64,000 bases of DNA. Source: a virus (taxonomy: Duplodnaviria > Caudoviricetes). The notes below the pieces were generated by a model. The model was not told the origin of the DNA and made no database searches. It worked only from the letters and a program-made list of their open reading frames with translations. The DNA is taken from IMG/VR virus record IMGVR_UViG_3300011008_000999; one strand, 5' to 3'. A program made the translations under genes and the position numbers. Numbering within the stretch: position 1 is the first letter of the stretch; every line of letters begins with the position of its first letter. Positions 23,667 to 61,129 of the stretch are shown in pieces.

Positions 23667-25154
23667 TTATGACTTAGTCTCTGCATAAAACATTTTTCTA
23701 AGAGTTACTGCATCTCTAGGAAGTAAGTCTCTCTTTTCAGCAGTATTCTCATTATAGAGCTTCTTACAAAATTCATAGAACTTAAGCGCAAGCTCATCTT
23801 CAATAAGGTCTTCTCTCTTGTACTTTCCATACTTAAGAGTTCCCTGCGCAATAGATCTCATAAACTTCCAGAATTTATAGAATGCAAGCTTAACCTTAAC
23901 CATATAACCATCAGCAGCTTCTACTACAAATCCTTCGATCTGACGACCTTCGTATAAGTAATCATTTGCAGTAACAGTTTTGTACCAATCTACAAATTCT
24001 TCGTAAGTATCAATTACACACGCCTTAGTCTTATACTTAAGACCAAGATCCTTTGCTATATCTACAAGCTGCTCATAAGGAAGCTGTTCAAAGTCCATCT
24101 TATTCTTAATAATTGCTATCAAGAAAAGCTGATTTTCAGCATAATCAATAATGTGAGGATCATTCTTCATATCTACATTTTCAAAGACAAAAGTAACATT
24201 CTCATTTTTAGAGAAGTTTTTCATCTTTTCAATGTTTTCAGAAGTCATATTTCTCTCAATTGCTTCTCTTAACCATACTGAGAAATCACCTTCAGGTGAA
24301 GACTTAGTAGTAACAAAAAGATCATCAGTCTCTTCATTATATGAAGCAAGACCAAGATAACCATTTTCCTTTACATAGCAAGTTACAGGAAACTTCATAG
24401 TCTTAAGGTTACCAAGCTGAGTAGATTCCATTTCACCGATATTAAAGAACTTATTAAAACCACGCGCAACGATCTTACCTAACTTAGTGTTAATGTAAAG
24501 ACCTCTTGCAACTATAGTCTGATTATCCCATACACCAGAATAGAAAGCTTCTCTAGTAAAGTTAAATGATGAGATATTTCCATAAGACTTTTCAGCCACA
24601 CAAGGATTAGATCTCATATTGTCAATAACTTCATCTATATCATCAAGCTTTACTTCTGATTTAACAGTAGAAATCTTATCAAATTCTTCAGGCTTAATAA
24701 CCTTTACATATGAAGGAACTTCACACTGTTCAAAGTTATGATACATTCTATCAATAACTTCTTCAGGAACACGTCTAAATGCTTCACGAGATGCATTTCT
24801 TCTCTTGCACTCTTCAATAGGAAGATCAGTGAAATCAATCACAAATGCATGATAATTGTATCTCTCAACAAGTGACTTATAAGAGTTAATTTCTCTAGTA
24901 GTTGAGTGAGTTGCGTCTATAATAGTATAAAGACCAAATGACATACGAAGTTCAAGTAACTGATTAAGATACTTGAATACCTTGCCATTATATTCCTGAG
25001 AAATTTCAGATACTTCAGTAGAACCTGAATAAGAGTACATAAACTGAAGTCTAAGATCATCAGTTGAAATGGTATAAGGTTCTAACTTGTTGTTCTTTAT
25101 GAAAGTTGATTTTCCGCAACCAGGTGCACCACGAAGAATTATTAATGATCTCAT
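23667..25154 (-). CDS. Polynucleotide kinase - RNA ligase (T4 Rnl1-like) fusion
   Basis: N-terminal GAPGCGKS P-loop and IIDATH; C-terminal ARGFNKFFN, KENG (motif I), EGFVV, KVK. Confidence 0.88.
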   Translation of the reverse strand: MRSLIILRGAPGCGKSTFIKNNKLEPYTISTDDLRLQFMYSYSGSTEVSEISQEYNGKVFKYLNQLLELRMSFGLYTIIDATHSTTREINSYKSLVERYNYHAFVIDFTDLPIEECKRRNASREAFRRVPEEVIDRMYHNFEQCEVPSYVKVIKPEEFDKISTVKSEVKLDDIDEVIDNMRSNPCVAEKSYGNISSFNFTREAFYSGVWDNQTIVARGLYINTKLGKIVARGFNKFFNIGEMESTQLGNLKTMKFPVTCYVKENGYLGLASYNEETDDLFVTTKSSPEGDFSVWLREAIERNMTSENIEKMKNFSKNENVTFVFENVDMKNDPHIIDYAENQLFLIAIIKNKMDFEQLPYEQLVDIAKDLGLKYKTKACVIDTYEEFVDWYKTVTANDYLYEGRQIEGFVVEAADGYMVKVKLAFYKFWKFMRSIAQGTLKYGKYKREDLIEDELALKFYEFCKKLYNENTAEKRDLLPRDAVTLRKMFYAETKS

Positions 25155-25220
25155 AATTAAGTATCTCCTTAAATATTATGAGTTTATTATAACATGATTA
25201 GTTTTATTTGTAAATAGTTT

Positions 25221-25946
25221 TTAGATACGTTCATATCTAGGCATAAGACTTACTTTATGAAGATTAAGTCTATGTCTACGTTCAATATTCTCTTTCTTCT
25301 TAGGATCATCGATCTCACCAGTCTCAATATAATGATCAAGTTCTGCATAAGTGAAACCGAGATTATCTTCATCAGTCTTACCACAAAGACCATCAGAAGG
25401 TGTCTTATGTACAAGATCTTTCGGAAGTCCAAGAGCATCACCAATCTTAAGCATATCCGTTACAGTGAACTCACAGCAAGGACTGAAATCACCTATGCTA
25501 TCACCAAACTTTGTAGAATAACCTACATAATCTTCAGAGCAGTTGCAAGTATTACATACTCTACCACCATTAGGAAGAGACTGTGCAATTGCATAAAGTG
25601 CAGTCATTCTAAGTCGCGGAGCAATATTGATTTTAGTATCTTCAGATGGATTATCAAGCTGTCCCATAAGACCATTAAATGCATCTGCAATATTTACTGT
25701 ATAACTCTTAATACCTAACAGATCAATAACTCTCTGACTATCTGAAATATCTTTCTGTTCTCCATTAGGCATCATAACACCAACTACTCGATCTTTACCG
25801 AGAGCATCTACAAGAAGTTTGGCAATTATGGTAGAATCTTTACCACCGGAAATACCGATTACCGCACTTGCCTGCGGACCATTTGTCTTAAACCATTCTT
25901 TAATCCAGCTTTTAATTCCTTCAATTTCAAAATTTACATCAAACAT
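25221..25946 (-). CDS. nadE: NH3-dependent NAD+ synthetase
   Basis: GISGGKDS, NIAPRLRMTALY, GYSTKFGD, KTPSDGL, DEDNLGFTY. Confidence 0.95.
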   Translation of the reverse strand: MFDVNFEIEGIKSWIKEWFKTNGPQASAVIGISGGKDSTIIAKLLVDALGKDRVVGVMMPNGEQKDISDSQRVIDLLGIKSYTVNIADAFNGLMGQLDNPSEDTKINIAPRLRMTALYAIAQSLPNGGRVCNTCNCSEDYVGYSTKFGDSIGDFSPCCEFTVTDMLKIGDALGLPKDLVHKTPSDGLCGKTDEDNLGFTYAELDHYIETGEIDDPKKKENIERRHRLNLHKVSLMPRYERI

Positions 25947-25948
25947 AT

Positions 25949-26362
25949 TTAAGCCTCCTTAAAATGATGCTTTAGAATATCACATACTTGTTTTGATTGT
26001 TTATACCAAATATGGTTTTTACCATATCTAGATTCTATTTCATTTAATCTTTCTGCTATAGTGACTTCTTCGCCTGTAGGACTTGTAGTCATATCAGCAA
26101 GATTTATAATCAGCCATTCCATATCTACACTAGTTGGAATAGTTCCATGAGACCTAATGTAGTCAGCATGTCCCCAACCTTTTAATAGGTCAGCTCCAAT
26201 TTCTTCATGCCATTCAGGATCAAATTCATAACCGATATCATGATTCCATCCTAAAGCAAACATTTCTCGTGCATACTGCTCATCATAACCAAGGTCTATA
26301 GTTATTTTATATGCTTTACGCGCAACTCCTAAGATATGATGCAGTCTATTTTCTGTTATCAT
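25949..26362 (-). CDS. HD-domain protein
   Basis: RLHHILGVA, HDIGY, H...GA, LADMTT. Confidence 0.85.
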   Translation of the reverse strand: MITENRLHHILGVARKAYKITIDLGYDEQYAREMFALGWNHDIGYEFDPEWHEEIGADLLKGWGHADYIRSHGTIPTSVDMEWLIINLADMTTSPTGEEVTIAERLNEIESRYGKNHIWYKQSKQVCDILKHHFKEA

Positions 26363-26865
26363 AGTTTCTTACCTTTTAGATATTTGTAAAAATCTGCATC
26401 AATATACTTCTTATACTTATTAGGATCTTTACGTATCTTTGTACCAGAAATATTGATCTTACTTCTATCTGCAATTATAAAATAGTGATATGGATATAAC
26501 TCACTTAATTTACTTGCATAATGTTCTTCACCAGTATACCAACAACAAGTATTTTCATTTGGATTTATATTTGCGTTAGTAAAAAGTTCTTTACACCAAG
26601 CTCTCCAAGCAGGAATATCAAACTTACCGGAAAGACCAATTTTCTTATCGTCAATAGGAACCACTATAATGTTAGGATTATCTTTATATTTAGTTTTCAT
26701 TAACTCTATACGAGTTCTAAATGGAAGGAAGTCTTTTCCTCTATCATCATCAAAGCCGCAAACGCCAATAATAACAGTACTATTTTCCTTAATAGCTCTA
26801 TTTATTAGAGATAAGTGACCTTGATGAAGAGGAATAAAACAACCAAATACTATGCCTATTTGCAT
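26359..26865 (-). CDS. Nicotinamide/nicotinate-mononucleotide adenylyltransferase-like (NadR/NadM-type)
   Basis: FGCFIPLHQGH (HxGH) and ISGTKIR; sits between nadE and pncA. Confidence 0.8.
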   Translation of the reverse strand: MQIGIVFGCFIPLHQGHLSLINRAIKENSTVIIGVCGFDDDRGKDFLPFRTRIELMKTKYKDNPNIIVVPIDDKKIGLSGKFDIPAWRAWCKELFTNANINPNENTCCWYTGEEHYASKLSELYPYHYFIIADRSKINISGTKIRKDPNKYKKYIDADFYKYLKGKKL

Positions 26866-26873
26866 GTTACTCC

Positions 26874-27380
26874 TTAAACAATATCGACCTGGAAAGTCTT
26901 CATTGCTTCAATAGCGGTTTTATGAGTATCAGGAGTTACACAAGCACAAAGTCTCTCGATTACCTTAACAGTAGTTTCAGGACAAAATGCTTTAGCAAGT
27001 GCAACATTACTGATTACACAGATTCCTGTACATACGCCGCAAAACTCAACATAGTCAAAACCATTGTTCTTGATATAGTTAGCAAGATCTACACTACCGA
27101 AAGTAGGCTTATTGAATATATTTGCTTTTGCAGGAACGTTGATTCCATCAACGATCTGCCATCCTTCAGTACTTTCAATACAGTGAACAACCGGAAGCTT
27201 GCTACCTTCCTGAGTCTCCATATAGTTAGGCTGGTGAGTATCTCTTGTAAAAACTACTTCTCCATCAAAAGTCTTTACATAGTCATTGATATCACCGACG
27301 ATCTTCTGTGCTTCTGTATTTGCAAGAGTTCCAGTAACGAAGTCATTCTGCATATCTACAACAACTAAAAGTTTCTTCAT
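26874..27380 (-). CDS. pncA: Nicotinamidase (isochorismatase family)
   Basis: VVDMQNDF, TRDTH, HC, KPTFGS, GVCTGICV. Confidence 0.88.
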   Translation of the reverse strand: MKKLLVVVDMQNDFVTGTLANTEAQKIVGDINDYVKTFDGEVVFTRDTHQPNYMETQEGSKLPVVHCIESTEGWQIVDGINVPAKANIFNKPTFGSVDLANYIKNNGFDYVEFCGVCTGICVISNVALAKAFCPETTVKVIERLCACVTPDTHKTAIEAMKTFQVDIV

Positions 27381-27449
27381 AAGATTTCTCCTTTATAAAT
27401 TGATTTATTTTATTATAACATGAAAATTTTATGTTGTAAATAGTTTTTG

Positions 27450-27917
27450 TTATGCATTGTGCTCATCTATAAACTTTGCTGTATTGATAAAGATCTGTTT
27501 TAACTGATCATCAATCTGATAACGTTCAGCATTCTTAGTAATAGACGTAAGAAGGTTACCATTATTTTGACGTTCTGACGAAGCCTTCCAATCTGCAAAC
27601 ATTTCTATAGTATCAATTAAATTCATATCATTGATACCTTTAGTAAAATGCTCAGGATGATGTCTATTCTTTGCATAATGTGACGGAAGAGCAGTAACTT
27701 TTAATTCTGCAAGTGATGCATTATATTCATCTGATCCATAAGTAAGACCACTAAGCTTATCATTAACTCTAGCAAACTCTTCTGCTTCAGGACTCTCAAG
27801 CTTACTTCTATCATGATCTATACCACGTTGAGTAAGTGCATCTGTAAATATCTTAATATACTTACGTACATTTTCGATATGTTTAATAGTGTCTAATTTG
27901 CTTTCAGCAAGTTTCAT
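27450..27917 (-). CDS. HD-like conserved phage protein (DUF5662-like)
   Basis: HDRSKL, HYAKNRHHPEH, EMFADW. Confidence 0.7.
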   Translation of the reverse strand: MKLAESKLDTIKHIENVRKYIKIFTDALTQRGIDHDRSKLESPEAEEFARVNDKLSGLTYGSDEYNASLAELKVTALPSHYAKNRHHPEHFTKGINDMNLIDTIEMFADWKASSERQNNGNLLTSITKNAERYQIDDQLKQIFINTAKFIDEHNA

Positions 27918-27937
27918 ATACTTTATCGTCCTTTCTA

Positions 27938-28249
27938 TTATTCCCAGCTATGTGAAATACCTGTTACTAATTCATCAAGTTCTGCGAAAAATTTTTCATG
28001 TGAATCTTCCCATTTATTTTCAAGCTGTTCTGAATATGTAGCAACTTCACCACCACATTCATATTCTACATAAATATATACTTCACCACTGGTTTTTACT
28101 GCTACCCAGCCATAATAAAGATTTGAAAATCTAATACGCTTCTCAAAACAATTTCGAAGTTGACCTGTTACACTAGATCTTGTATATTTAAAACCATGCT
28201 CAGTAAGTATATTTTTTGATTGACTTAAATCTTCACTTAATATACCCAT
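27938..28249 (-). CDS. Hypothetical protein
   Basis: 103-aa ORF, translationally coupled. Confidence 0.65.
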   Translation of the reverse strand: MGILSEDLSQSKNILTEHGFKYTRSSVTGQLRNCFEKRIRFSNLYYGWVAVKTSGEVYIYVEYECGGEVATYSEQLENKWEDSHEKFFAELDELVTGISHSWE

Positions 28250-28425
28250 TAGTTTTCTTCCTCCTTTTTCATAATTTTACCACAAAATGGGCATTTATTT
28301 GGTCTTATTTCAGTTCCATGAGAATTTATAGGTGCATCCATTTTACATGAGGCACATCTGTATCTATAAAACTCATTATCTCCAAAATTTTTACAGTACT
28401 CTTCCCAATAACTAGTATTTTCCAT
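28249..28425 (-). CDS. Small zinc-ribbon protein (58 aa, not in ORF track)
   Basis: MENTSYWEE...YRCASC...NKCPFCGKIM; AGGAG RBS. Confidence 0.7.
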   Translation of the reverse strand: MENTSYWEEYCKNFGDNEFYRYRCASCKMDAPINSHGTEIRPNKCPFCGKIMKKEEEN

Positions 28426-28501
28426 AATATCTCCTATTTATGTTTAGCATAAAATTCCTTAAATCGTTCAAAAGTACTATCCATACACATTAAGAACTTA
28501 A

Positions 28502-28708
28502 CTATATCTGGATCTGTCTTAACATGTGTAGCTCTAAAATGCAAATATCAGGTTTACTATGTTCCCAAATACTTACTTCAAGTTCAAGTGGACCATCAAT
28601 ATAACCTGTACTACCTGTACCGTACGAATCAATTTCTACATCATCAGGTAGATTTTTTAGAATTTCTTTTAACGCACCAACTGTAGTAATTGGATATATT
28701 GTTGTCAT
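28502..28708 (-). CDS. Hypothetical small protein
   Basis: TVGALKEILKNLPDD start typical of small phage proteins. Confidence 0.65.
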   Translation of the reverse strand: MTTIYPITTVGALKEILKNLPDDVEIDSYGTGSTGYIDGPLELEVSIWEHSKPDICILELHMLRQIQI

Positions 28709-28720
28709 TAAATCACCTTC

Positions 28721-29953
28721 TTAATAAATAACTACAACTGTTCCAACTTCAACTGCATCATATAATTCATAAGAAAAATCAAGTGGAAGGTTAATACATC
28801 CATGAGAACCATTTGTGATATAAGTCTCAGGATTTTCAAAATCTGATGCAGGTCTCCAAGTAGCGTCATGAAGTCCATGTCCGCGTTCAGTAAATCTCAT
28901 CCAGTTCTTTCCAGAAAGACCACCATCAAATGCAATTCCATGAAACATACTAGAAATCTGATATACGCCTATAGGTGTATCAGTTATATCAAGTTTTCCA
29001 GTAACTACTTTAGATTTAAGTTTAAGCTCTCCATCTACATAATACCAAAGATACTGATCTTTAATAGATATCTCAATAAATGTATTAGGAATTTCAAACA
29101 TATAAGGATGTGTGAACCTATACTCTTTGAATTCCTCTCTATTTACAAATTCAGATTCATTATCTGCAAGAAGAATAGGTACTCTATTTGTTTCAGACTC
29201 AAGTGAGCAAATCTTATCTTTGATATAAAGATATTCTTTCTGAAAATCTACTCTATTTCCATAAGTACTTATACAATAGCAATCTTCAGCTGACTTTATA
29301 TATATAAGACCATTAACTGGAGAGTTAAATTCCCAAGTATTATAATAAGTATTGTACTTATCAGCCTTTTCTTTTACAAGTTCGATTACGTGATTATTAA
29401 ACTCTTCAGAATCAAAATGAGTAGTAATAGTATTTGAACTTACAGTAACAAAATCTTTAAGATCATAAATATTGATATACTCGTTATTTGTATACTGAAT
29501 TGTAAAGTTAATATAACGACTAAGAATACCAACAAGTCTATCATATTCCATAGAAGGTCCGTTATCAGACATAACAAAGTCTTTAACATCAATAGTAGAC
29601 TTAGGCGCAGATTCTTTAATCTTATCATATAACTTATCTATATCAATAAGATTAGTTTCTACATACTCAGTTACTCTTAATCCTTTCTCATCCCAGACAA
29701 GAGTAGGATATGTATTATCATGTCTACCAGCATTTAGTGATTTTAGATATTCCTTAGTGACAGTATTCTTATCAATCTCAAGTATATTATTGTTACTAAC
29801 TACAGATACGGTATTACAAATAGGTTCAGCAATAATTTCTTCTATTTGACTGGCTTCTACATTCTTAGAACAAGCTGCTATAGTACAAACTCCAGTAATT
29901 GTTACAATTGCAAGTATAATAGGAAATGCAAGTTTAGTTAAATGTCTCATCAT
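28721..29953 (-). CDS. L,D-transpeptidase (YkuD domain), secreted
   Basis: N-terminal signal; IEISIKDQ, VVTG, TPIG, GLHDA.WR, GSHGCINL. Confidence 0.92.
   Translation of the reverse strand: MMRHLTKLAFPIILAIVTITGVCTIAACSKNVEASQIEEIIAEPICNTVSVVSNNNILEIDKNTVTKEYLKSLNAGRHDNTYPTLVWDEKGLRVTEYVETNLIDIDKLYDKIKESAPKSTIDVKDFVMSDNGPSMEYDRLVGILSRYINFTIQYTNNEYINIYDLKDFVTVSSNTITTHFDSEEFNNHVIELVKEKADKYNTYYNTWEFNSPVNGLIYIKSAEDCYCISTYGNRVDFQKEYLYIKDKICSLESETNRVPILLADNESEFVNREEFKEYRFTHPYMFEIPNTFIEISIKDQYLWYYVDGELKLKSKVVTGKLDITDTPIGVYQISSMFHGIAFDGGLSGKNWMRFTERGHGLHDATWRPASDFENPETYITNGSHGCINLPLDFSYELYDAVEVGTVVVIY
29092..29152. repeat. 61-bp dispersed repeat shared with the primase gene (34779-34839)
   Basis: 54/61 identical by manual alignment, first 37 bp with one mismatch. 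Confidence 0.9.
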
Positions 29954-30035
29954 ATCTCCCTTAAGAATTAAATTCTCTTTTGATTTATATTTACGAATTT
30001 ATTATAATATGCAAATGTTACCATGTAAATAGTTT

Positions 30036-30254
30036 TTATGCTCTAGCATTCCAACGTTTTAAAGCTTCACTAGTTACATATTCTCTAGCAGTTTTAAGTG
30101 TTTCTAAATCTATATCTTTAAGTACTTTAGAATTTATTGGACCTCTAGCATGACAGCTATTACATCTACCACTAGCTTTCATAGTATAGCAAGACTTAGT
30201 AACTTGAATTTTTACTTTATTACTTCCACAGAATGGACATGCTAACTGATTCAT
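30036..30254 (-). CDS. Lar-like (restriction alleviation) zinc-ribbon protein
   Basis: LACPFCG...CNSCHARGP...ALKRWN. Confidence 0.7.
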   Translation of the reverse strand: MNQLACPFCGSNKVKIQVTKSCYTMKASGRCNSCHARGPINSKVLKDIDLETLKTAREYVTSEALKRWNARA

Positions 30255-30277
30255 TTATTTTTCTCCTTTTCCTAATT

Positions 30278-30307
30278 AAAATGGGCACCGAATACTCGGC
30301 ACCCATT
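30278..30307 (-). terminator. Intrinsic terminator after pncB
   Basis: ATGGGTGCCGA-GTAT-TCGGTGCCCAT then TTT. Confidence 0.75.
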
Positions 30308-30332
30308 ATGTAACTTTATGTTGATGAGTTAC

Positions 30333-31550
30333 TTACTTTTCATTAGCCATTCTCCAATCAATGGCTCTCTGAAGATACTCAACATACTCAGGATTCTTAC
30401 ACATTCCTTTACCAGGAGTATCAGAAATCTTTGCAACATCCTGTCCATTACAGAATGTAGTCTTCATTACAATGTTGAGTGCAGGTACATCAGTGTCATT
30501 TGCAAGGTAAGTACCAATACCAAATGCGACCTTTGCCTTTTCTCTAAAGTATCTGCAGATCTTATCAGCTCTCTCAAAGTTAAGACTATCAGAGAAGAGA
30601 AGAGTCTTTGTTTTAGGATCGATACCAAGCTTCTTGTAATGAGCAATCATCTTCTCACCCCATTCGATAGGATCACCAGAGTCATGACGAACACCACTGA
30701 ACAGAGTAGCATAAGTAAGATCAAAGTCTTTAAGGAAGCAATCAGTTGTAATTGCATCTGTAAGAGCAGTTCCGTTAAGGATTCCATACTCATTTACCCA
30801 TGCTCTAAGTGCATAATAGTTAGAGTATGCCGGATTGTGCTTATGATCTCCCTGACCTACACACATGATCCACTCGTGTGCCATAGTACCGACCGGAATA
30901 ACTCCAAATTTCTTTGCGAGATATACATTAGAAGTACCGATAAATCTGCTTGCGCTATGCATCGTATCATTGAGATGACTGAACTTCTGAATTGCAAGTT
31001 CCTGCGCTTCTGCAGAAAGTCTACGTCTAAGACCAAATTCAGAGAATGTGCCAAGGTAATACTTACCATGCTTAACATCCTCGAACTTAGCATCGAGACG
31101 TTTCTTAAAGCTATCTATAAGCTCATTGTAATTGTACTGCATTCTGAAGTAAACTTCATTTACGATTGCCAATGTAGGGATCTCATACATAGAAGTATTT
31201 ACCCAAGTTCCTTTAGTCTCAATAGAAAGACCGCACTCTGCATTAGTAGTGATCTCAAAATCTTCGAATCGAGGCTGCCAGATTCTAAGGAAATTGATAT
31301 AGCTGCCCTTGAACCATTTGATCTGATCGAGATACTGAAGTTCATCTTCAATGAATCTCAGCTGACAGTATGCCTTGATCTGTTCCTTGATCTCTTCTAC
31401 CATCTCAGGAGTAAAATGAACATCTTTATTACGACACTTGAATGTCCAAGTAGTCATGTATTCAGGGAACTGATGATAAATTGCCTGACCCATAGAAAAC
31501 TTATAAAGGTCAGTTTCCAAAAGACTGTTAATAATCTGATTGAGTTTCAT
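30333..31550 (-). CDS. pncB: Nicotinate phosphoribosyltransferase
   Basis: LETDLYKFSM, EFGLRRR, GTSNV, GTMAHEW, GVRHDSGDP, FSDSL, AFGIGT, KISDTPGK. Confidence 0.96.
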   Translation of the reverse strand: MKLNQIINSLLETDLYKFSMGQAIYHQFPEYMTTWTFKCRNKDVHFTPEMVEEIKEQIKAYCQLRFIEDELQYLDQIKWFKGSYINFLRIWQPRFEDFEITTNAECGLSIETKGTWVNTSMYEIPTLAIVNEVYFRMQYNYNELIDSFKKRLDAKFEDVKHGKYYLGTFSEFGLRRRLSAEAQELAIQKFSHLNDTMHSASRFIGTSNVYLAKKFGVIPVGTMAHEWIMCVGQGDHKHNPAYSNYYALRAWVNEYGILNGTALTDAITTDCFLKDFDLTYATLFSGVRHDSGDPIEWGEKMIAHYKKLGIDPKTKTLLFSDSLNFERADKICRYFREKAKVAFGIGTYLANDTDVPALNIVMKTTFCNGQDVAKISDTPGKGMCKNPEYVEYLQRAIDWRMANEK

Positions 31551-31567
31551 GTTTGTAACTTCCTTTC

Positions 31568-31705
31568 TTATTTATTCTGTTCATTCATGAACTTTTCTGC
31601 AGCTTCTTTAGTATCAAATGATCGTTCACTGGGACCAAGTAGACTAGTAGCATCTCCATATACTACCCAGTATTTATTACCTTCTTTATACATATATGCC
31701 TTCAT
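31568..31705 (-). CDS. Small hypothetical protein (45 aa, not in ORF track)
   Basis: MKAYMYKEGNKYWVV...FDTKEAAEKF; GGAGG RBS just after a promoter. Confidence 0.6.
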   Translation of the reverse strand: MKAYMYKEGNKYWVVYGDATSLLGPSERSFDTKEAAEKFMNEQNK

Positions 31706-31780
31706 ATAAGTACCTCCATTTAATTTATAAATAAATTATAACATGAAGACAACAAAAAGTAAATAGTTTTAGTAATTATT

Positions 31781-32230
31781 TTATGTAGTTAATTCTTTTT
31801 CGCGTTCTTTAATACTATCATGAAGATACTTCCAAGTAATTGTAAGATTTCTGTCTCCAGCTCTCTTAAAGAACTTGTATAAAGTAGGAAGATTAGTTTT
31901 TTCCTTTTCTCCAATCTCAGTACCTTTTATCTTTTCAGCAATTATAGCACAATCTTTGCTTTCAAGAGTATAAGTCTTATTAGAAGTTAAGAACTCTACT
32001 ATAGAAAGATCATAGTCAAAAAGAGCTAAATTGTTGTTAACTGCTTCCATAACATTATGCATAGCATCAGTCATAGAAACTACATTAAAATCATCAATCT
32101 TATCTATGTAGTTATTATATGATTCAAAGAACTCATCTCCATATTTAGATGCGATCACTTTCCTGAGTTCGTTAAATTCTTCATCTGAATAATTATGTCC
32201 ATTTCCTTTTGAATTATATAATGTAATCAT
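31781..32230 (-). CDS. Hypothetical protein
   Basis: Own promoter and RBS. Confidence 0.7.
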   Translation of the reverse strand: MITLYNSKGNGHNYSDEEFNELRKVIASKYGDEFFESYNNYIDKIDDFNVVSMTDAMHNVMEAVNNNLALFDYDLSIVEFLTSNKTYTLESKDCAIIAEKIKGTEIGEKEKTNLPTLYKFFKRAGDRNLTITWKYLHDSIKEREKELTT

Positions 32231-55744: not shown

Positions 55745-56179
55745 TTAAAATCGTTCCATCTCTCTTTTCATATCTTTTTCTTTAATTGATTGACGTTTGT
55801 CATAATTATGCTTACCTTTACATATACCGAGAAGAACTTTAACCTTATCATTCTTCATGTACATCTTTAAAGGAATAAGAGTAATTCCATTGTCAATTAA
55901 CTTGTTCTTAAGGGACCTAATTTCCTGCTTATGAACAAGTAATCTTCTATTTCTTCTTTCTGCTACATCATAGTCCATAGCTTTATCATACTTAGCAATA
56001 TGAGTGCCAATAAGAATAAGTTCATTATTTTCAATAGAAATATATGAATCCTTAAGATTACATGAACCTTTCTTTATAGACTTAATTTCATGACCTTTGA
56101 GCTCAATACCACATTCAATGGTATCAAGCACAAAATAGTCATAATAAGCTTTTCTATTTTCTATGTTAATAGAATTCAT
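55745..56179 (-). CDS. smpB: SsrA-binding protein SmpB
   Basis: NRKAYYDYF, ECGIELKGHEIKS, RRLLVHK.EI, GKHNYDKR. Confidence 0.96.
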   Translation of the reverse strand: MNSINIENRKAYYDYFVLDTIECGIELKGHEIKSIKKGSCNLKDSYISIENNELILIGTHIAKYDKAMDYDVAERRNRRLLVHKQEIRSLKNKLIDNGITLIPLKMYMKNDKVKVLLGICKGKHNYDKRQSIKEKDMKREMERF

Positions 56180-56854: not shown

Positions 56855-57412
56855 TTATACTAAGAAGCTTATACACTTCTTAATTTCATTCATAATATCA
56901 TTATAGATTTCATCCATTGAGACAGGACCATTATTATGAGCATCTACTGCTACATTATATATATAAGGTCTATCTTCAAGGAACTTCTGCTTGCTATGCG
57001 TATGACCAAAAAGATTAAATACACAAGTCTTAGGATTACTGTTCAAATCTGCGGTAAGTGTAGGATAGTGACTAATATAGAACTTTCGTCCCTTATATTC
57101 GATCTGCTTAGCTAAACAAATCTCAATAATCTTATCACATCGCTTATATACTTCGATCTTAGCAGGAGTATCGTGATTACCAAGAATAAGAATAATCTTA
57201 CCCTTGAGTATTTTCAATGTATTCTCTACAAACTCAATATCTGAGCCAAAAAAGAAGTCGCCATCTACAATAACAGTATCTTCATCAGTTACAATATTAT
57301 TCCAATTTCTGATAAGAGTTTCATTTGATTCCTTACAAGACTTAAAGCCTCTTGGACCCCAAATAAACTCTCTATCATGATTAAAATGTAAATCAGACGT
57401 TAAATAAAGCAT
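56855..57412 (-). CDS. Calcineurin-like metallophosphoesterase
   Basis: SDLHFNH, GDF, GNHD, SHYP, FGHTH. Confidence 0.92.
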   Translation of the reverse strand: MLYLTSDLHFNHDREFIWGPRGFKSCKESNETLIRNWNNIVTDEDTVIVDGDFFFGSDIEFVENTLKILKGKIILILGNHDTPAKIEVYKRCDKIIEICLAKQIEYKGRKFYISHYPTLTADLNSNPKTCVFNLFGHTHSKQKFLEDRPYIYNVAVDAHNNGPVSMDEIYNDIMNEIKKCISFLV

Positions 57413-57413
57413 T

Positions 57414-57884
57414 TTATTTATTCTCCATTATAAAATCAAATATCTCTTTAGGTACATATTTAGATATGTCTTTCTTGTGTTTAAGAAGTTCTCTTACCAT
57501 ACTAGAACTTACATGACCAAGCTGTCCAGCTCTAATATAAATTGTGTCAACTCCTGTAACTTCTTCATTAACTGATGCAAGGTTTTCTTCATATTCATAA
57601 TCCATACCATTACGAATACCACGAACTAATACATCACAGTTATACTCAATAGCTGCATCTACACCTAAACCTGTAAATACAACTACTTTTGTATTTGTTA
57701 TACCTTCTCTTTCAAGAACGTCTTTAATTAAAAGTGCCATTGTACTTTGATTATATTTTCTTGTTTTAGCTGGATTAACTCCAACACCAATTACAAGACG
57801 ATCAAATAGCTTAGATGCTCTTTTAATTACATGTAAATGTCCATTTGTAAATGGATCAAAACTACCAGCATAAAAACCGTTCAT
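57414..57884 (-). CDS. coaD: Phosphopantetheine adenylyltransferase
   Basis: GSFDPFTNGH, NPAK, VRGIR...DYEYE, VSSSMVREL. Confidence 0.92.
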   Translation of the reverse strand: MNGFYAGSFDPFTNGHLHVIKRASKLFDRLVIGVGVNPAKTRKYNQSTMALLIKDVLEREGITNTKVVVFTGLGVDAAIEYNCDVLVRGIRNGMDYEYEENLASVNEEVTGVDTIYIRAGQLGHVSSSMVRELLKHKKDISKYVPKEIFDFIMENK

Positions 57885-60610: not shown

Positions 60611-60770
60611 TCCTACGATAGTGCACCTAACAGAAGATGTAGCATTTACCGGCGCTCAACCTTTACTGTGCTATGAACGACTTTGCTCCAAGTTGAGCCG
60701 AGGCGGCTGGAACCATGAAACAAAACTTGTAGAATCCAAAATGAATAAAATGACAAATCACTTTGGAAAG

Positions 60771-61129
60771 TGGAGATGAGGGGAATCGAACCCCTGTCCG
60801 AAATACTTACTCAGAGCTTTCTACACGTTTATCTTGCTTTTAATAAGTTATCTAACCATCTAAACAGGCGAACTGATTAGCAACTAACTATTGTGGTCTT
60901 ATGTATGAATACTTTTGTCATCCTCTTCATACAGCAGCGATCATCTTTGGCCATAAGAGATACGACCGCAATACTCTTATGACTTAACTCTCCGAAGAGA
61001 GGTTGCTGCGATTAGGCAGCTGCGTAACCGTAGTTAGCGTTTATTGTTTGGTGTCGGATTCAAGAGGTGTCCACCATCCTCTACGTGCTTTTCTCGTTGC
61101 TTGTACCCCGTCGAAACCTTTACATCCCC
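60771..61129 (-). ncRNA. ssrA: tmRNA
   Basis: 5-prime GGGGATGTAAAGGTTTCGAC, 3-prime GGGGTTCGATTCCCCTCATCTCCA, tag frame ANYGYAAA* at 61012-61038. Confidence 0.95.

Follow-up and report, generated by a model that had tools for sequence, protein, structure and literature searches.

The stretch analysed here, referred to as the window, is a 64,000-nt segment of viral DNA corresponding to the reverse strand of positions 154,971-218,970 in the 331,944-bp IMG/VR record IMGVR_UViG_3300011008_000999. It contains a group of genes for the salvage of nicotinamide to nicotinamide adenine dinucleotide (NAD+), encoding a PncA-like nicotinamidase, PncB, an adenylyltransferase, an HD-domain protein and NadE. 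The record has direct terminal repeats and a completeness rating of 100%, and its source is a 332-kb jumbo phage of the rumen. Gut metagenomes of cattle, sheep and goats, drawn from at least a dozen studies, contain near-identical or closely related DNA; among the runs listed for it none was of RNA, and two marked as possible RNA resemble DNA. Butyrivibrio, or another member of the Lachnospiraceae, is the likely host. The window has a G+C content of about 33% with all long open reading frames (ORFs) on the minus strand, and it also encodes split RNA polymerase genes, a primase, nine tRNA genes, a tmRNA and SmpB. The features of the salvage genes are as follows.

31735-31763, minus strand: sigma-A-like promoter of the pncB unit, TTTACT-N17-TGTTATAAT (motif family).
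31568-31705, minus strand: 45-codon leader ORF between this promoter and pncB (reading of the sequence).
30333-31550, minus strand: pncB, nicotinate phosphoribosyltransferase, converting nicotinate and phosphoribosyl pyrophosphate (PRPP) to nicotinate mononucleotide (NaMN) (NF003704, TIGR01514, PF04095 and PF17767).
27412-27440, minus strand: sigma-A-like promoter of the pncA-nadE unit, TTTACA-N17-TGTTATAAT (motif family).
26874-27380, minus strand: pncA-like gene, putative nicotinamidase, nicotinamide to nicotinate (PF00857, 1ILW, invariant catalytic residues).
26359-26865, minus strand: stand-alone NadR-type adenylyltransferase domain for nicotinamide mononucleotide (NMN) or NaMN, 168 amino acids (TIGR01526, PDB matches, model).
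25949-26362, minus strand: minimal HD-domain phosphohydrolase, 137 amino acids, probable accessory partner of the adenylyltransferase (PF01966, fold, fusions).
25221-25946, minus strand: nadE, single-domain ammonia-type NAD synthetase, 241 amino acids (TIGR00552, SGGxDS).
25186-25214, minus strand: next promoter of the same family, where the nadE unit ends and the Pnk-Rnl gene begins (motif family).

The genes named in an earlier sequence-only reading of this DNA were all recovered at these positions by family searches, with pncB 3 kb away from the others. The pncA-nadE unit is tightly packed: 8 nt separate pncA from the adenylyltransferase gene, which overlaps the HD gene by 4 nt (ATGA), and 2 nt lie between the HD gene and nadE. 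The 'class I promoters' described in that reading correspond to a real recurrent motif, TTTAC-N17-TGnTATAAT, with 12 copies in the window against 0.09 expected. All 12 are on the coding strand, 20-60 nt upstream of a gene or RNA gene, and they include copies before pncA and before the 45-codon ORF and pncB. With one copy before pncA and another directly after nadE, the pncA-nadE unit is bracketed. Both units would be transcribed from sigma-A-type extended -10 promoters.

The PncA-like protein belongs to the isochorismatase family (PF00857, 92 bits). Its triad D9/K91/C121, which aligns to D10/K94/C133 of Pyrococcus horikoshii PncA (1ILW, the top solved relative, E 3e-16), and its nicotinamidase-typical Asp-His-His metal ligands D47/H49/H66 are invariant in 23 orthologues. 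The protein is nearest to Pyrococcus and Mycobacterium PncA and gives 26 bits against the E. coli-type equivalog NF008623 (cut-off 174), indicating that it belongs to another subfamily than the E. coli type. PncB scores above the cut-offs of NF003704 (480 bits against 379) and TIGR01514 (418 against 270), has both nicotinate phosphoribosyltransferase domains, PF17767 and PF04095, and is 72-86% identical to phage and Butyrivibrio orthologues. As it is the sole PF04095 gene of the phage genome, the phage has no Nampt. NadE matches PF02540 (159 bits) and TIGR00552 (155 bits, cut-off 64), lacks a glutaminase domain and retains an intact SGGxDS loop (S33-G-G-x-D37-S38, residues 33-38) that is invariant in the orthologues. 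Its best solved relatives are the archaeal 2E18 (119 bits) and Francisella NadE* 3FIU (110 bits), with B. subtilis NadE at 81 bits. Ratios of nonsynonymous to synonymous substitution rates relative to the closest viral relative, contig L021 (IMGVR_UViG_3300021400_002728), are 0.07 for PncA, 0.10 for PncB and 0.15 for NadE; by this measure all three proteins are under purifying selection.

The sequence-only reading had described the adenylyltransferase as an NMN adenylyltransferase (NMNAT)-like HxGH protein. The HxGH motif is present, but a NadD-like identity can be discarded since the protein is of NadR type: it gives 92 bits against TIGR01526 (NadR), spanning positions 1-157 of the 325-position model, and only 21.6 bits against the NadD model TIGR00482, whose cut-off is 112 and against which true Butyrivibrio NadD scores 150-157. 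The motifs H14-x-G16-H17 (HxGH, residues 14-17) and ISGTxIR (139-145) are near-invariant in 57 aligned orthologues, the exceptions being gaps in one truncated row and two serines at position 142. The best solved relatives are Lactococcus NadR (6GYE, E 1.5e-19), E. coli NadR, Bas30_86 (9X6F, E 1.3e-7) and Haemophilus NadR. The predicted model has a mean confidence (pLDDT) of 94.6 and its top fold match is NadR (E 5.5e-12, TM 0.78), followed by NadM and then by CoaD and NadD. The ribosylnicotinamide kinase domain of full-length NadR is not found in the 168-residue protein, and the whole-protein cut-off of TIGR01526, 341 bits, is not reached. By sequence and predicted fold, the adenylyltransferase is a stand-alone NadR-type NMNAT domain and not a NadD. 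No other candidate for a NaMN or NMN adenylyltransferase was found in the phage genome. The second PF01467 gene was considered as a NadD and rejected, as it scores as CoaD, pantetheine-phosphate adenylyltransferase (149 bits, cut-off 103); this gene (57414-57884, minus strand) adjoins a metallophosphoesterase-like gene (56855-57412, minus strand).

A viral scan with the single adenylyltransferase protein gave no matches; an alignment-based scan recovered relatives. The same four enzymes lie compactly together in at least 17 other viral IMG/VR contigs of up to 467 kb. Their usual order is a contiguous pncA-adenylyltransferase-pncB-nadE. The flanks of these contigs are unrelated to the window, except in the close relative L021 and in part in L006 and L010. 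Enzymes shared between unrelated flanks indicate that the block behaves as a cassette.

In species-representative genomes, a scan recovered adenylyltransferase-pncB-nadE at 39 loci, nearly all from rumen Butyrivibrio and other Lachnospiraceae and including the cultured B. hungatei and B. proteoclasticus. The operon of these and other Butyrivibrio has the same three families in the same order, 49-77% identical. It differs from the window in that pncA is elsewhere on the chromosome, there is no HD gene and the adenylyltransferase is often fused to PncB, whereas in the window the genes are unfused and pncB lies 3 kb upstream behind its own promoter. Identities between bacterial and phage proteins are 49-59% for the adenylyltransferase, 72-81% for PncB and 51-70% for NadE, and unrooted trees place the Butyrivibrio copies in a single tight clade, with the phage copies as a neighbouring grade. 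On this sequence evidence the phage cassette and the Butyrivibrio operon are close kin. The simplest reading of the trees is that the cassette was captured from the host lineage, though unrooted trees do not fix the direction. The Butyrivibrio also have other NAD genes. A true NadD was found in all five isolates and a PncA homologue elsewhere on the chromosome in 46 of the 61 genomes of the genus. Three of the five isolates additionally have a long glutamine-type NadE, and the other two have the short operon NadE alone together with NadD.

In-frame fusions join the adenylyltransferase to each of three neighbours. Fusion to PncB occurs in about 20 of the 39 Butyrivibrio/Lachnospiraceae loci (among L026-L061) and was confirmed by the independent gene calls P0198-P0208, of 575-598 amino acids with PF01467, PF17767 and PF04095. 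Fusion to NadE, giving proteins of about 405-411 amino acids, is found at L010:8971-10218 (IMGVR_UViG_3300021431_002946, a 467-kb viral contig) and in P0196. Fusion to the HD protein, 306 amino acids, is found in the closest relative (L021:8989-9918) and in P0197, whose HD part has 71% identity to the HD protein of the window. No other evidence ties the five proteins to one pathway as strongly as the three fusions. The adenylyltransferase-PncB fusion proteins are annotated as nicotinate phosphoribosyltransferase only, and no published description of this fusion was found.

Some further variation in the adenylyltransferase was observed. The window and L021 proteins are 53% identical, while the flanking PncA, NadE and PncB are 95%, 88% and 86% identical; such divergence amid conserved neighbours suggests allele replacement inside the cassette. 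L006 has two diverged adenylyltransferase copies, and in P0205 (336 amino acids) a NadR-type domain precedes some 170 residues that match no Pfam family and are unlike the HD protein.

The HD protein reaches 22.1 bits against PF01966, just above the cut-off of 22. Its residues H9, H41-D42, H52, H72 and D90 (H..HD..H..H..D) are invariant in 28 homologues, and its model (pLDDT 95.5) is a minimal HD domain. The only sequence models to match are generic HD and HDIG, at or below their cut-offs, and no YqeK model does so. Fold matches have Z scores of 9-11, in which YqeK structures (9.3-9.8) are tied with or below PPX (polyphosphatase), GlyRS and HD-GYP (10-11). The suggestion in the earlier reading that the HD protein may be a component of the pathway gains from its fusion to the adenylyltransferase in the nearest relative, L021, but has to be narrowed, as the gene is optional and most NAD cassettes lack it. 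Nor does the HD gene belong to NAD metabolism in general, since its homologues at other viral loci lie away from NAD genes, among miscellaneous neighbours, in 23 of 24 cases. As judged from these gene arrangements, pairing of the HD hydrolase with the adenylyltransferase is optional. A predicted complex of the two proteins scored 0.00, which counts neither for nor against the pairing. By analogy with the NadD-YqeK pair of Firmicutes and mycoplasmas, in which the hydrolase removes wrong dinucleotides and diadenosine tetraphosphate (PMC9426524), the HD protein may be a dinucleotide pyrophosphatase, which is the weakest point of our explanation. Both cases have an HD phosphohydrolase adjacent to, or fused with, a pyridine-nucleotide adenylyltransferase. 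The HD protein of the window is however shorter (137 residues against about 190), matches no YqeK sequence model and has a NadR-type partner rather than NadD, so that the parallel is one of analogy and not of membership.

The HD protein might instead serve RNA repair. The Pnk-Rnl gene (25154-23667), one gene downstream of the HD gene, has kinase and ligase domains with no phosphatase domain, and the HD protein could supply the missing 3'-end healing. This is very improbable given the translational coupling of the HD gene to the adenylyltransferase gene and the fusion of the two in L021 and P0197, the promoter between nadE and the Pnk-Rnl gene, and the lack of any homologue of this Pnk-Rnl protein within 6 kb of the HD homologues at 23 other viral loci.

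The substrate order and the selective advantage that we infer, together with the role of the HD protein, are as follows. PncA would deamidate nicotinamide to nicotinate, PncB would combine nicotinate with host PRPP to give NaMN, the NadR-type enzyme would most likely convert NaMN to nicotinate adenine dinucleotide (NaAD) and NadE would amidate NaAD to NAD+ with ammonia, the HD hydrolase acting as an optional partner of the adenylyltransferase. The genes probably form a working cassette from nicotinamide or nicotinate to NAD+, an auxiliary metabolic module kin to the Butyrivibrio operon, with its steps running through NaAD. The four activities from which the sequence-only reading had built a four-step route are thus all encoded and intact, but the NaMN to NaAD step is less firm than it had assumed, since the NadR family is known for acting on NMN. 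Nor can the set be regarded as added capacity, since the likely Butyrivibrio host has closely related genes as well as NadD. The likely benefit would be that NAD+ resynthesis is kept running under phage control, duplicating host capacity and opening no new route. The rebuilt NAD+ would serve the phage's own NAD-dependent DNA ligase and cushion losses of NAD+, those to TIR/SIR2-type defences among them. Counting against this explanation, neither a PRPP synthetase (PF13793) nor the PnuC transporter (PF04973) was found in the complete phage genome; PRPP would have to come from the host.

On sequence evidence the classical order, NaMN to NaAD to NAD+, is favoured over a route through NMN and is more likely than not. 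The PncB-adenylyltransferase fusion joins neighbouring steps only if NaMN is the substrate of the adenylyltransferase. In the two Butyrivibrio isolates with NadD and only the short operon NadE, this NadE must be an NAD synthetase. Several observations weigh on the other side. The studied NMNAT domains of the NadR family are described as NMN enzymes, and NadR reportedly prefers NMN to NaMN. Canonical NadD is also present in Butyrivibrio, so the operon adenylyltransferase need not take NaMN. The NadE is nearer to Francisella NadE*, which is an NMN synthetase, than to Bacillus NadE, though nearest to archaeal NadE. The specificity positions of Francisella NadE* are, we presume, Tyr27, Gln133 and Arg236, and the Thr, Gly and Val of B. 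anthracis NadE at the aligned positions are consistent with this. The phage NadE has Gly23, Gln122 and Leu227, one Francisella-like residue in three, and this Gln122, aligned with Gln133, is invariant in 55 phage and host sequences.

These last observations would suit a Francisella-type order in which NadE is the NMN synthetase, converting NaMN to NMN, and the NadR-type enzyme then converts NMN to NAD+. The short NadE with 3FIU as its second-best solved relative (110 bits against 81 for B. subtilis) and the NadR type of the adenylyltransferase agree with this, and the adenylyltransferase-NadE fusion fits it as well. Such an order nevertheless appears unlikely. At the other two positions the residues are NAD-synthetase-like: Gly, Ala or Ser where Francisella has Tyr27, and a variable, mostly hydrophobic residue where it has Arg236. 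Among solved structures the archaeal 2E18 matches best, and the archaeal enzyme that has been tested, that of M. jannaschii, has no NMN synthetase activity. The two isolates with NadD and this NadE only speak against it, and the PncB-adenylyltransferase fusion would join non-consecutive enzymes. A second alternative has two branches, in which the adenylyltransferase only recycles NMN, for example from the phage ligase, and host NadD adenylates the NaMN made by PncA and PncB before phage NadE takes over, leaving the set not self-sufficient. The NMN substrate described for NadR-family enzymes, the NadD of all five isolates and the presence of LigA in the phage would allow this, but it is quite unlikely, as 56 loci show strict clustering of the adenylyltransferase with pncB and nadE, and its fusions to PncB and NadE argue for a single pathway.

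An anti-defence role for the cassette, as the sequence-only reading proposed, is plausible, with circumstantial support from gene content. In its dedicated form, NAD+ would be rebuilt from the nicotinamide freed by TIR/SIR2 NADases, in a deamidating analogue of the known phage systems NARP2 and NARP3. The substrate of PncA is exactly the NADase product, and pncA is contiguous with the other genes in phage cassettes but elsewhere in Butyrivibrio chromosomes. The promoters are of host-type class. Candidate NADase genes are common in the genus presumed to be the host: TIR_2 turns up in 42 of 61 genomes and SIR2_2 in 7 of 61, with a Thoeris-like SIR2 and TIR cluster in a single genome. Elsewhere in the phage is a Nudix protein of ADP-ribose pyrophosphatase type, and a tRNA-repair-type Pnk-Rnl gene adjoins the cassette. 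On the other side, the host has closely related versions of the enzymes and the NAD-consuming phage ligase offers a housekeeping reason for the cassette, and TIR and SIR2 domains are not always NADases. The four-step route, which by textbook reactions costs at least three ATP per NAD+ by our reckoning, in addition to PRPP, would be slower than NARP1-3. In the literature searched, no published experiment was found on any deamidating (nicotinamidase-based) phage route, though Li et al. 2024 propose the same idea. A dedicated counter-defence is a tentative possibility. The fullest version, in which a NadR-family enzyme recruited to NaMN acts with PncA, PncB, NadE and a YqeK-like HD proofreading partner as a self-contained fourth phage NAD+ system shielding rumen Lachnospiraceae jumbo phages from TIR/SIR2 NADases, seems rather unlikely.

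The distinct route that the earlier reading inferred is not newly recognised. Li et al. 2024 (Microbiome, PMC11662467) described 174 'NAD-jumbo phages' with salvage or Preiss-Handler gene sets, mentioned phage pncA, noted NAD-dependent ligases and proposed counter-defence against NAD+ depletion from sequence only; NARP3 has since been described. Those phages, such as Kuafu_71 with pncB-nadD-nadE, resemble the present one in being animal-gut genomes above 200 kb with clustered NAD salvage genes and an NAD-dependent ligase. The present phage likewise exceeds 200 kb and has PncB, an adenylyltransferase and NadE, the completeness of its pathway hinging on a presumptive NaMN activity of the adenylyltransferase or on host NadD. 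There are differences: a stand-alone NadR-type domain in place of NadD, pncA within the cassette and an inserted HD gene, and a likely Butyrivibrio/Lachnospiraceae host with related genes in place of a Bacteroidota host and host complementarity.

NARP2 (Nampt and Nmnat/Nudix, Vibrio phage KVP40; Osterman et al., bioRxiv 10.1101/2024.02.11.579819) also leads from nicotinamide to NAD+ by way of a phage adenylyltransferase, but the phage of the window has no Nampt, uses four steps via nicotinate and not two amidated ones, and has its Nudix gene separate and distant. NARP3 (PnuC and the bifunctional NadR-like Bas30_86; Sci Adv 2026, PMC13464706) has been shown experimentally, and the NMNAT domain of Bas30_86 and the adenylyltransferase are homologues (9X6F, as above). 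The phage of the window however has neither a ribosylnicotinamide kinase domain nor PnuC, and the precursor would be nicotinamide or nicotinate and not nicotinamide riboside. It differs from NARP1 (Adps and Namat) in that its complete 332-kb genome has no PRPP-synthetase-like Adps gene (PF13793). The Francisella tularensis route combines the NMN synthetase NadE* with NadM (Sorci et al. 2009, as cited in PMC3376133). It resembles the present set in pairing a short ammonia-type NadE with an NMN-type adenylyltransferase in place of NadD; the phage NadE, by contrast, shows a mixture of residues at the specificity positions, and NadD is present in the host as well.

The gene set itself is thus ordinary, having already been published from sequence. 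In the literature searched, no earlier description was found of a NadR-type enzyme in a deamidating cassette, of its three fusions or of the kinship with Butyrivibrio. The fusions to PncB, NadE and the HD protein give the testable prediction that this NadR-type branch handles NaMN. They would also be an independent second example of an HD hydrolase linked to an adenylyltransferase for pyridine nucleotides. If NAD+ is rebuilt from nicotinamide during infection, the experimentally known phage answers to NAD-depleting immunity, NARP1-3, would extend to a deamidating route, and this in hosts of ecological importance, the rumen fibre degraders.

Other genes of the phage that touch on these subjects were noted. 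The NAD-dependent DNA ligase (LigA) gene appears to be interrupted: its ORF ends after 370 amino acids, covering model positions 2-384 of 664, and is followed by a group I intron endonuclease-like ORF (region L004:1294-3465; G000:C1:239451-241622). The Nudix protein, nearest to the ADP-ribose pyrophosphatase domains of NadM and NrtR, lies about 5 kb outside the window accompanied by an RNase Z that exceeds its cut-off (L005:1420-1896 and 69-971; G000:C1:222689-224516). The Pnk-Rnl gene (23667-25154, minus strand) encodes a 495-residue protein in which a P-loop polynucleotide-kinase-like domain is fused to a T4 Rnl1-type RNA ligase, without a phosphatase domain, and may be a tRNA-repair gene countering anticodon-nuclease defences.

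Between pncB and the pncA unit lies a gene (28721-29953, minus strand) for a 410-residue protein that starts with a lipoprotein-like signal peptide and ends in a YkuD L,D-transpeptidase domain; its L021 counterpart is 80% identical. A DUF5662 protein (27450-27917, minus strand, 108 bits, of a family found mostly in phages) was rejected as part of the pathway since its gene is part of the upstream unit and no related cassette contains it. Elsewhere in the window are an SmpB gene exceeding its equivalog cut-off (55745-56179, minus strand) and the tmRNA, with tag ANYGYAAA (60770-61129, minus strand), which is preceded by a promoter of the TTTAC-N17-TGnTATAAT family. A PADLOC scan of the region matched no relevant defence model, and megablast of the region against the phage collection gave no matches. 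A bovine-gut relative (a 136-kb contig, run X2) is about 98.6% identical over 25202-28537. Over window positions 25000-32000 the two differ by insertions of kilobase size at three places, namely after nadE, at 28537/28538 and upstream of pncB, which points to a rapid turnover of insertions and deletions around the cassette.

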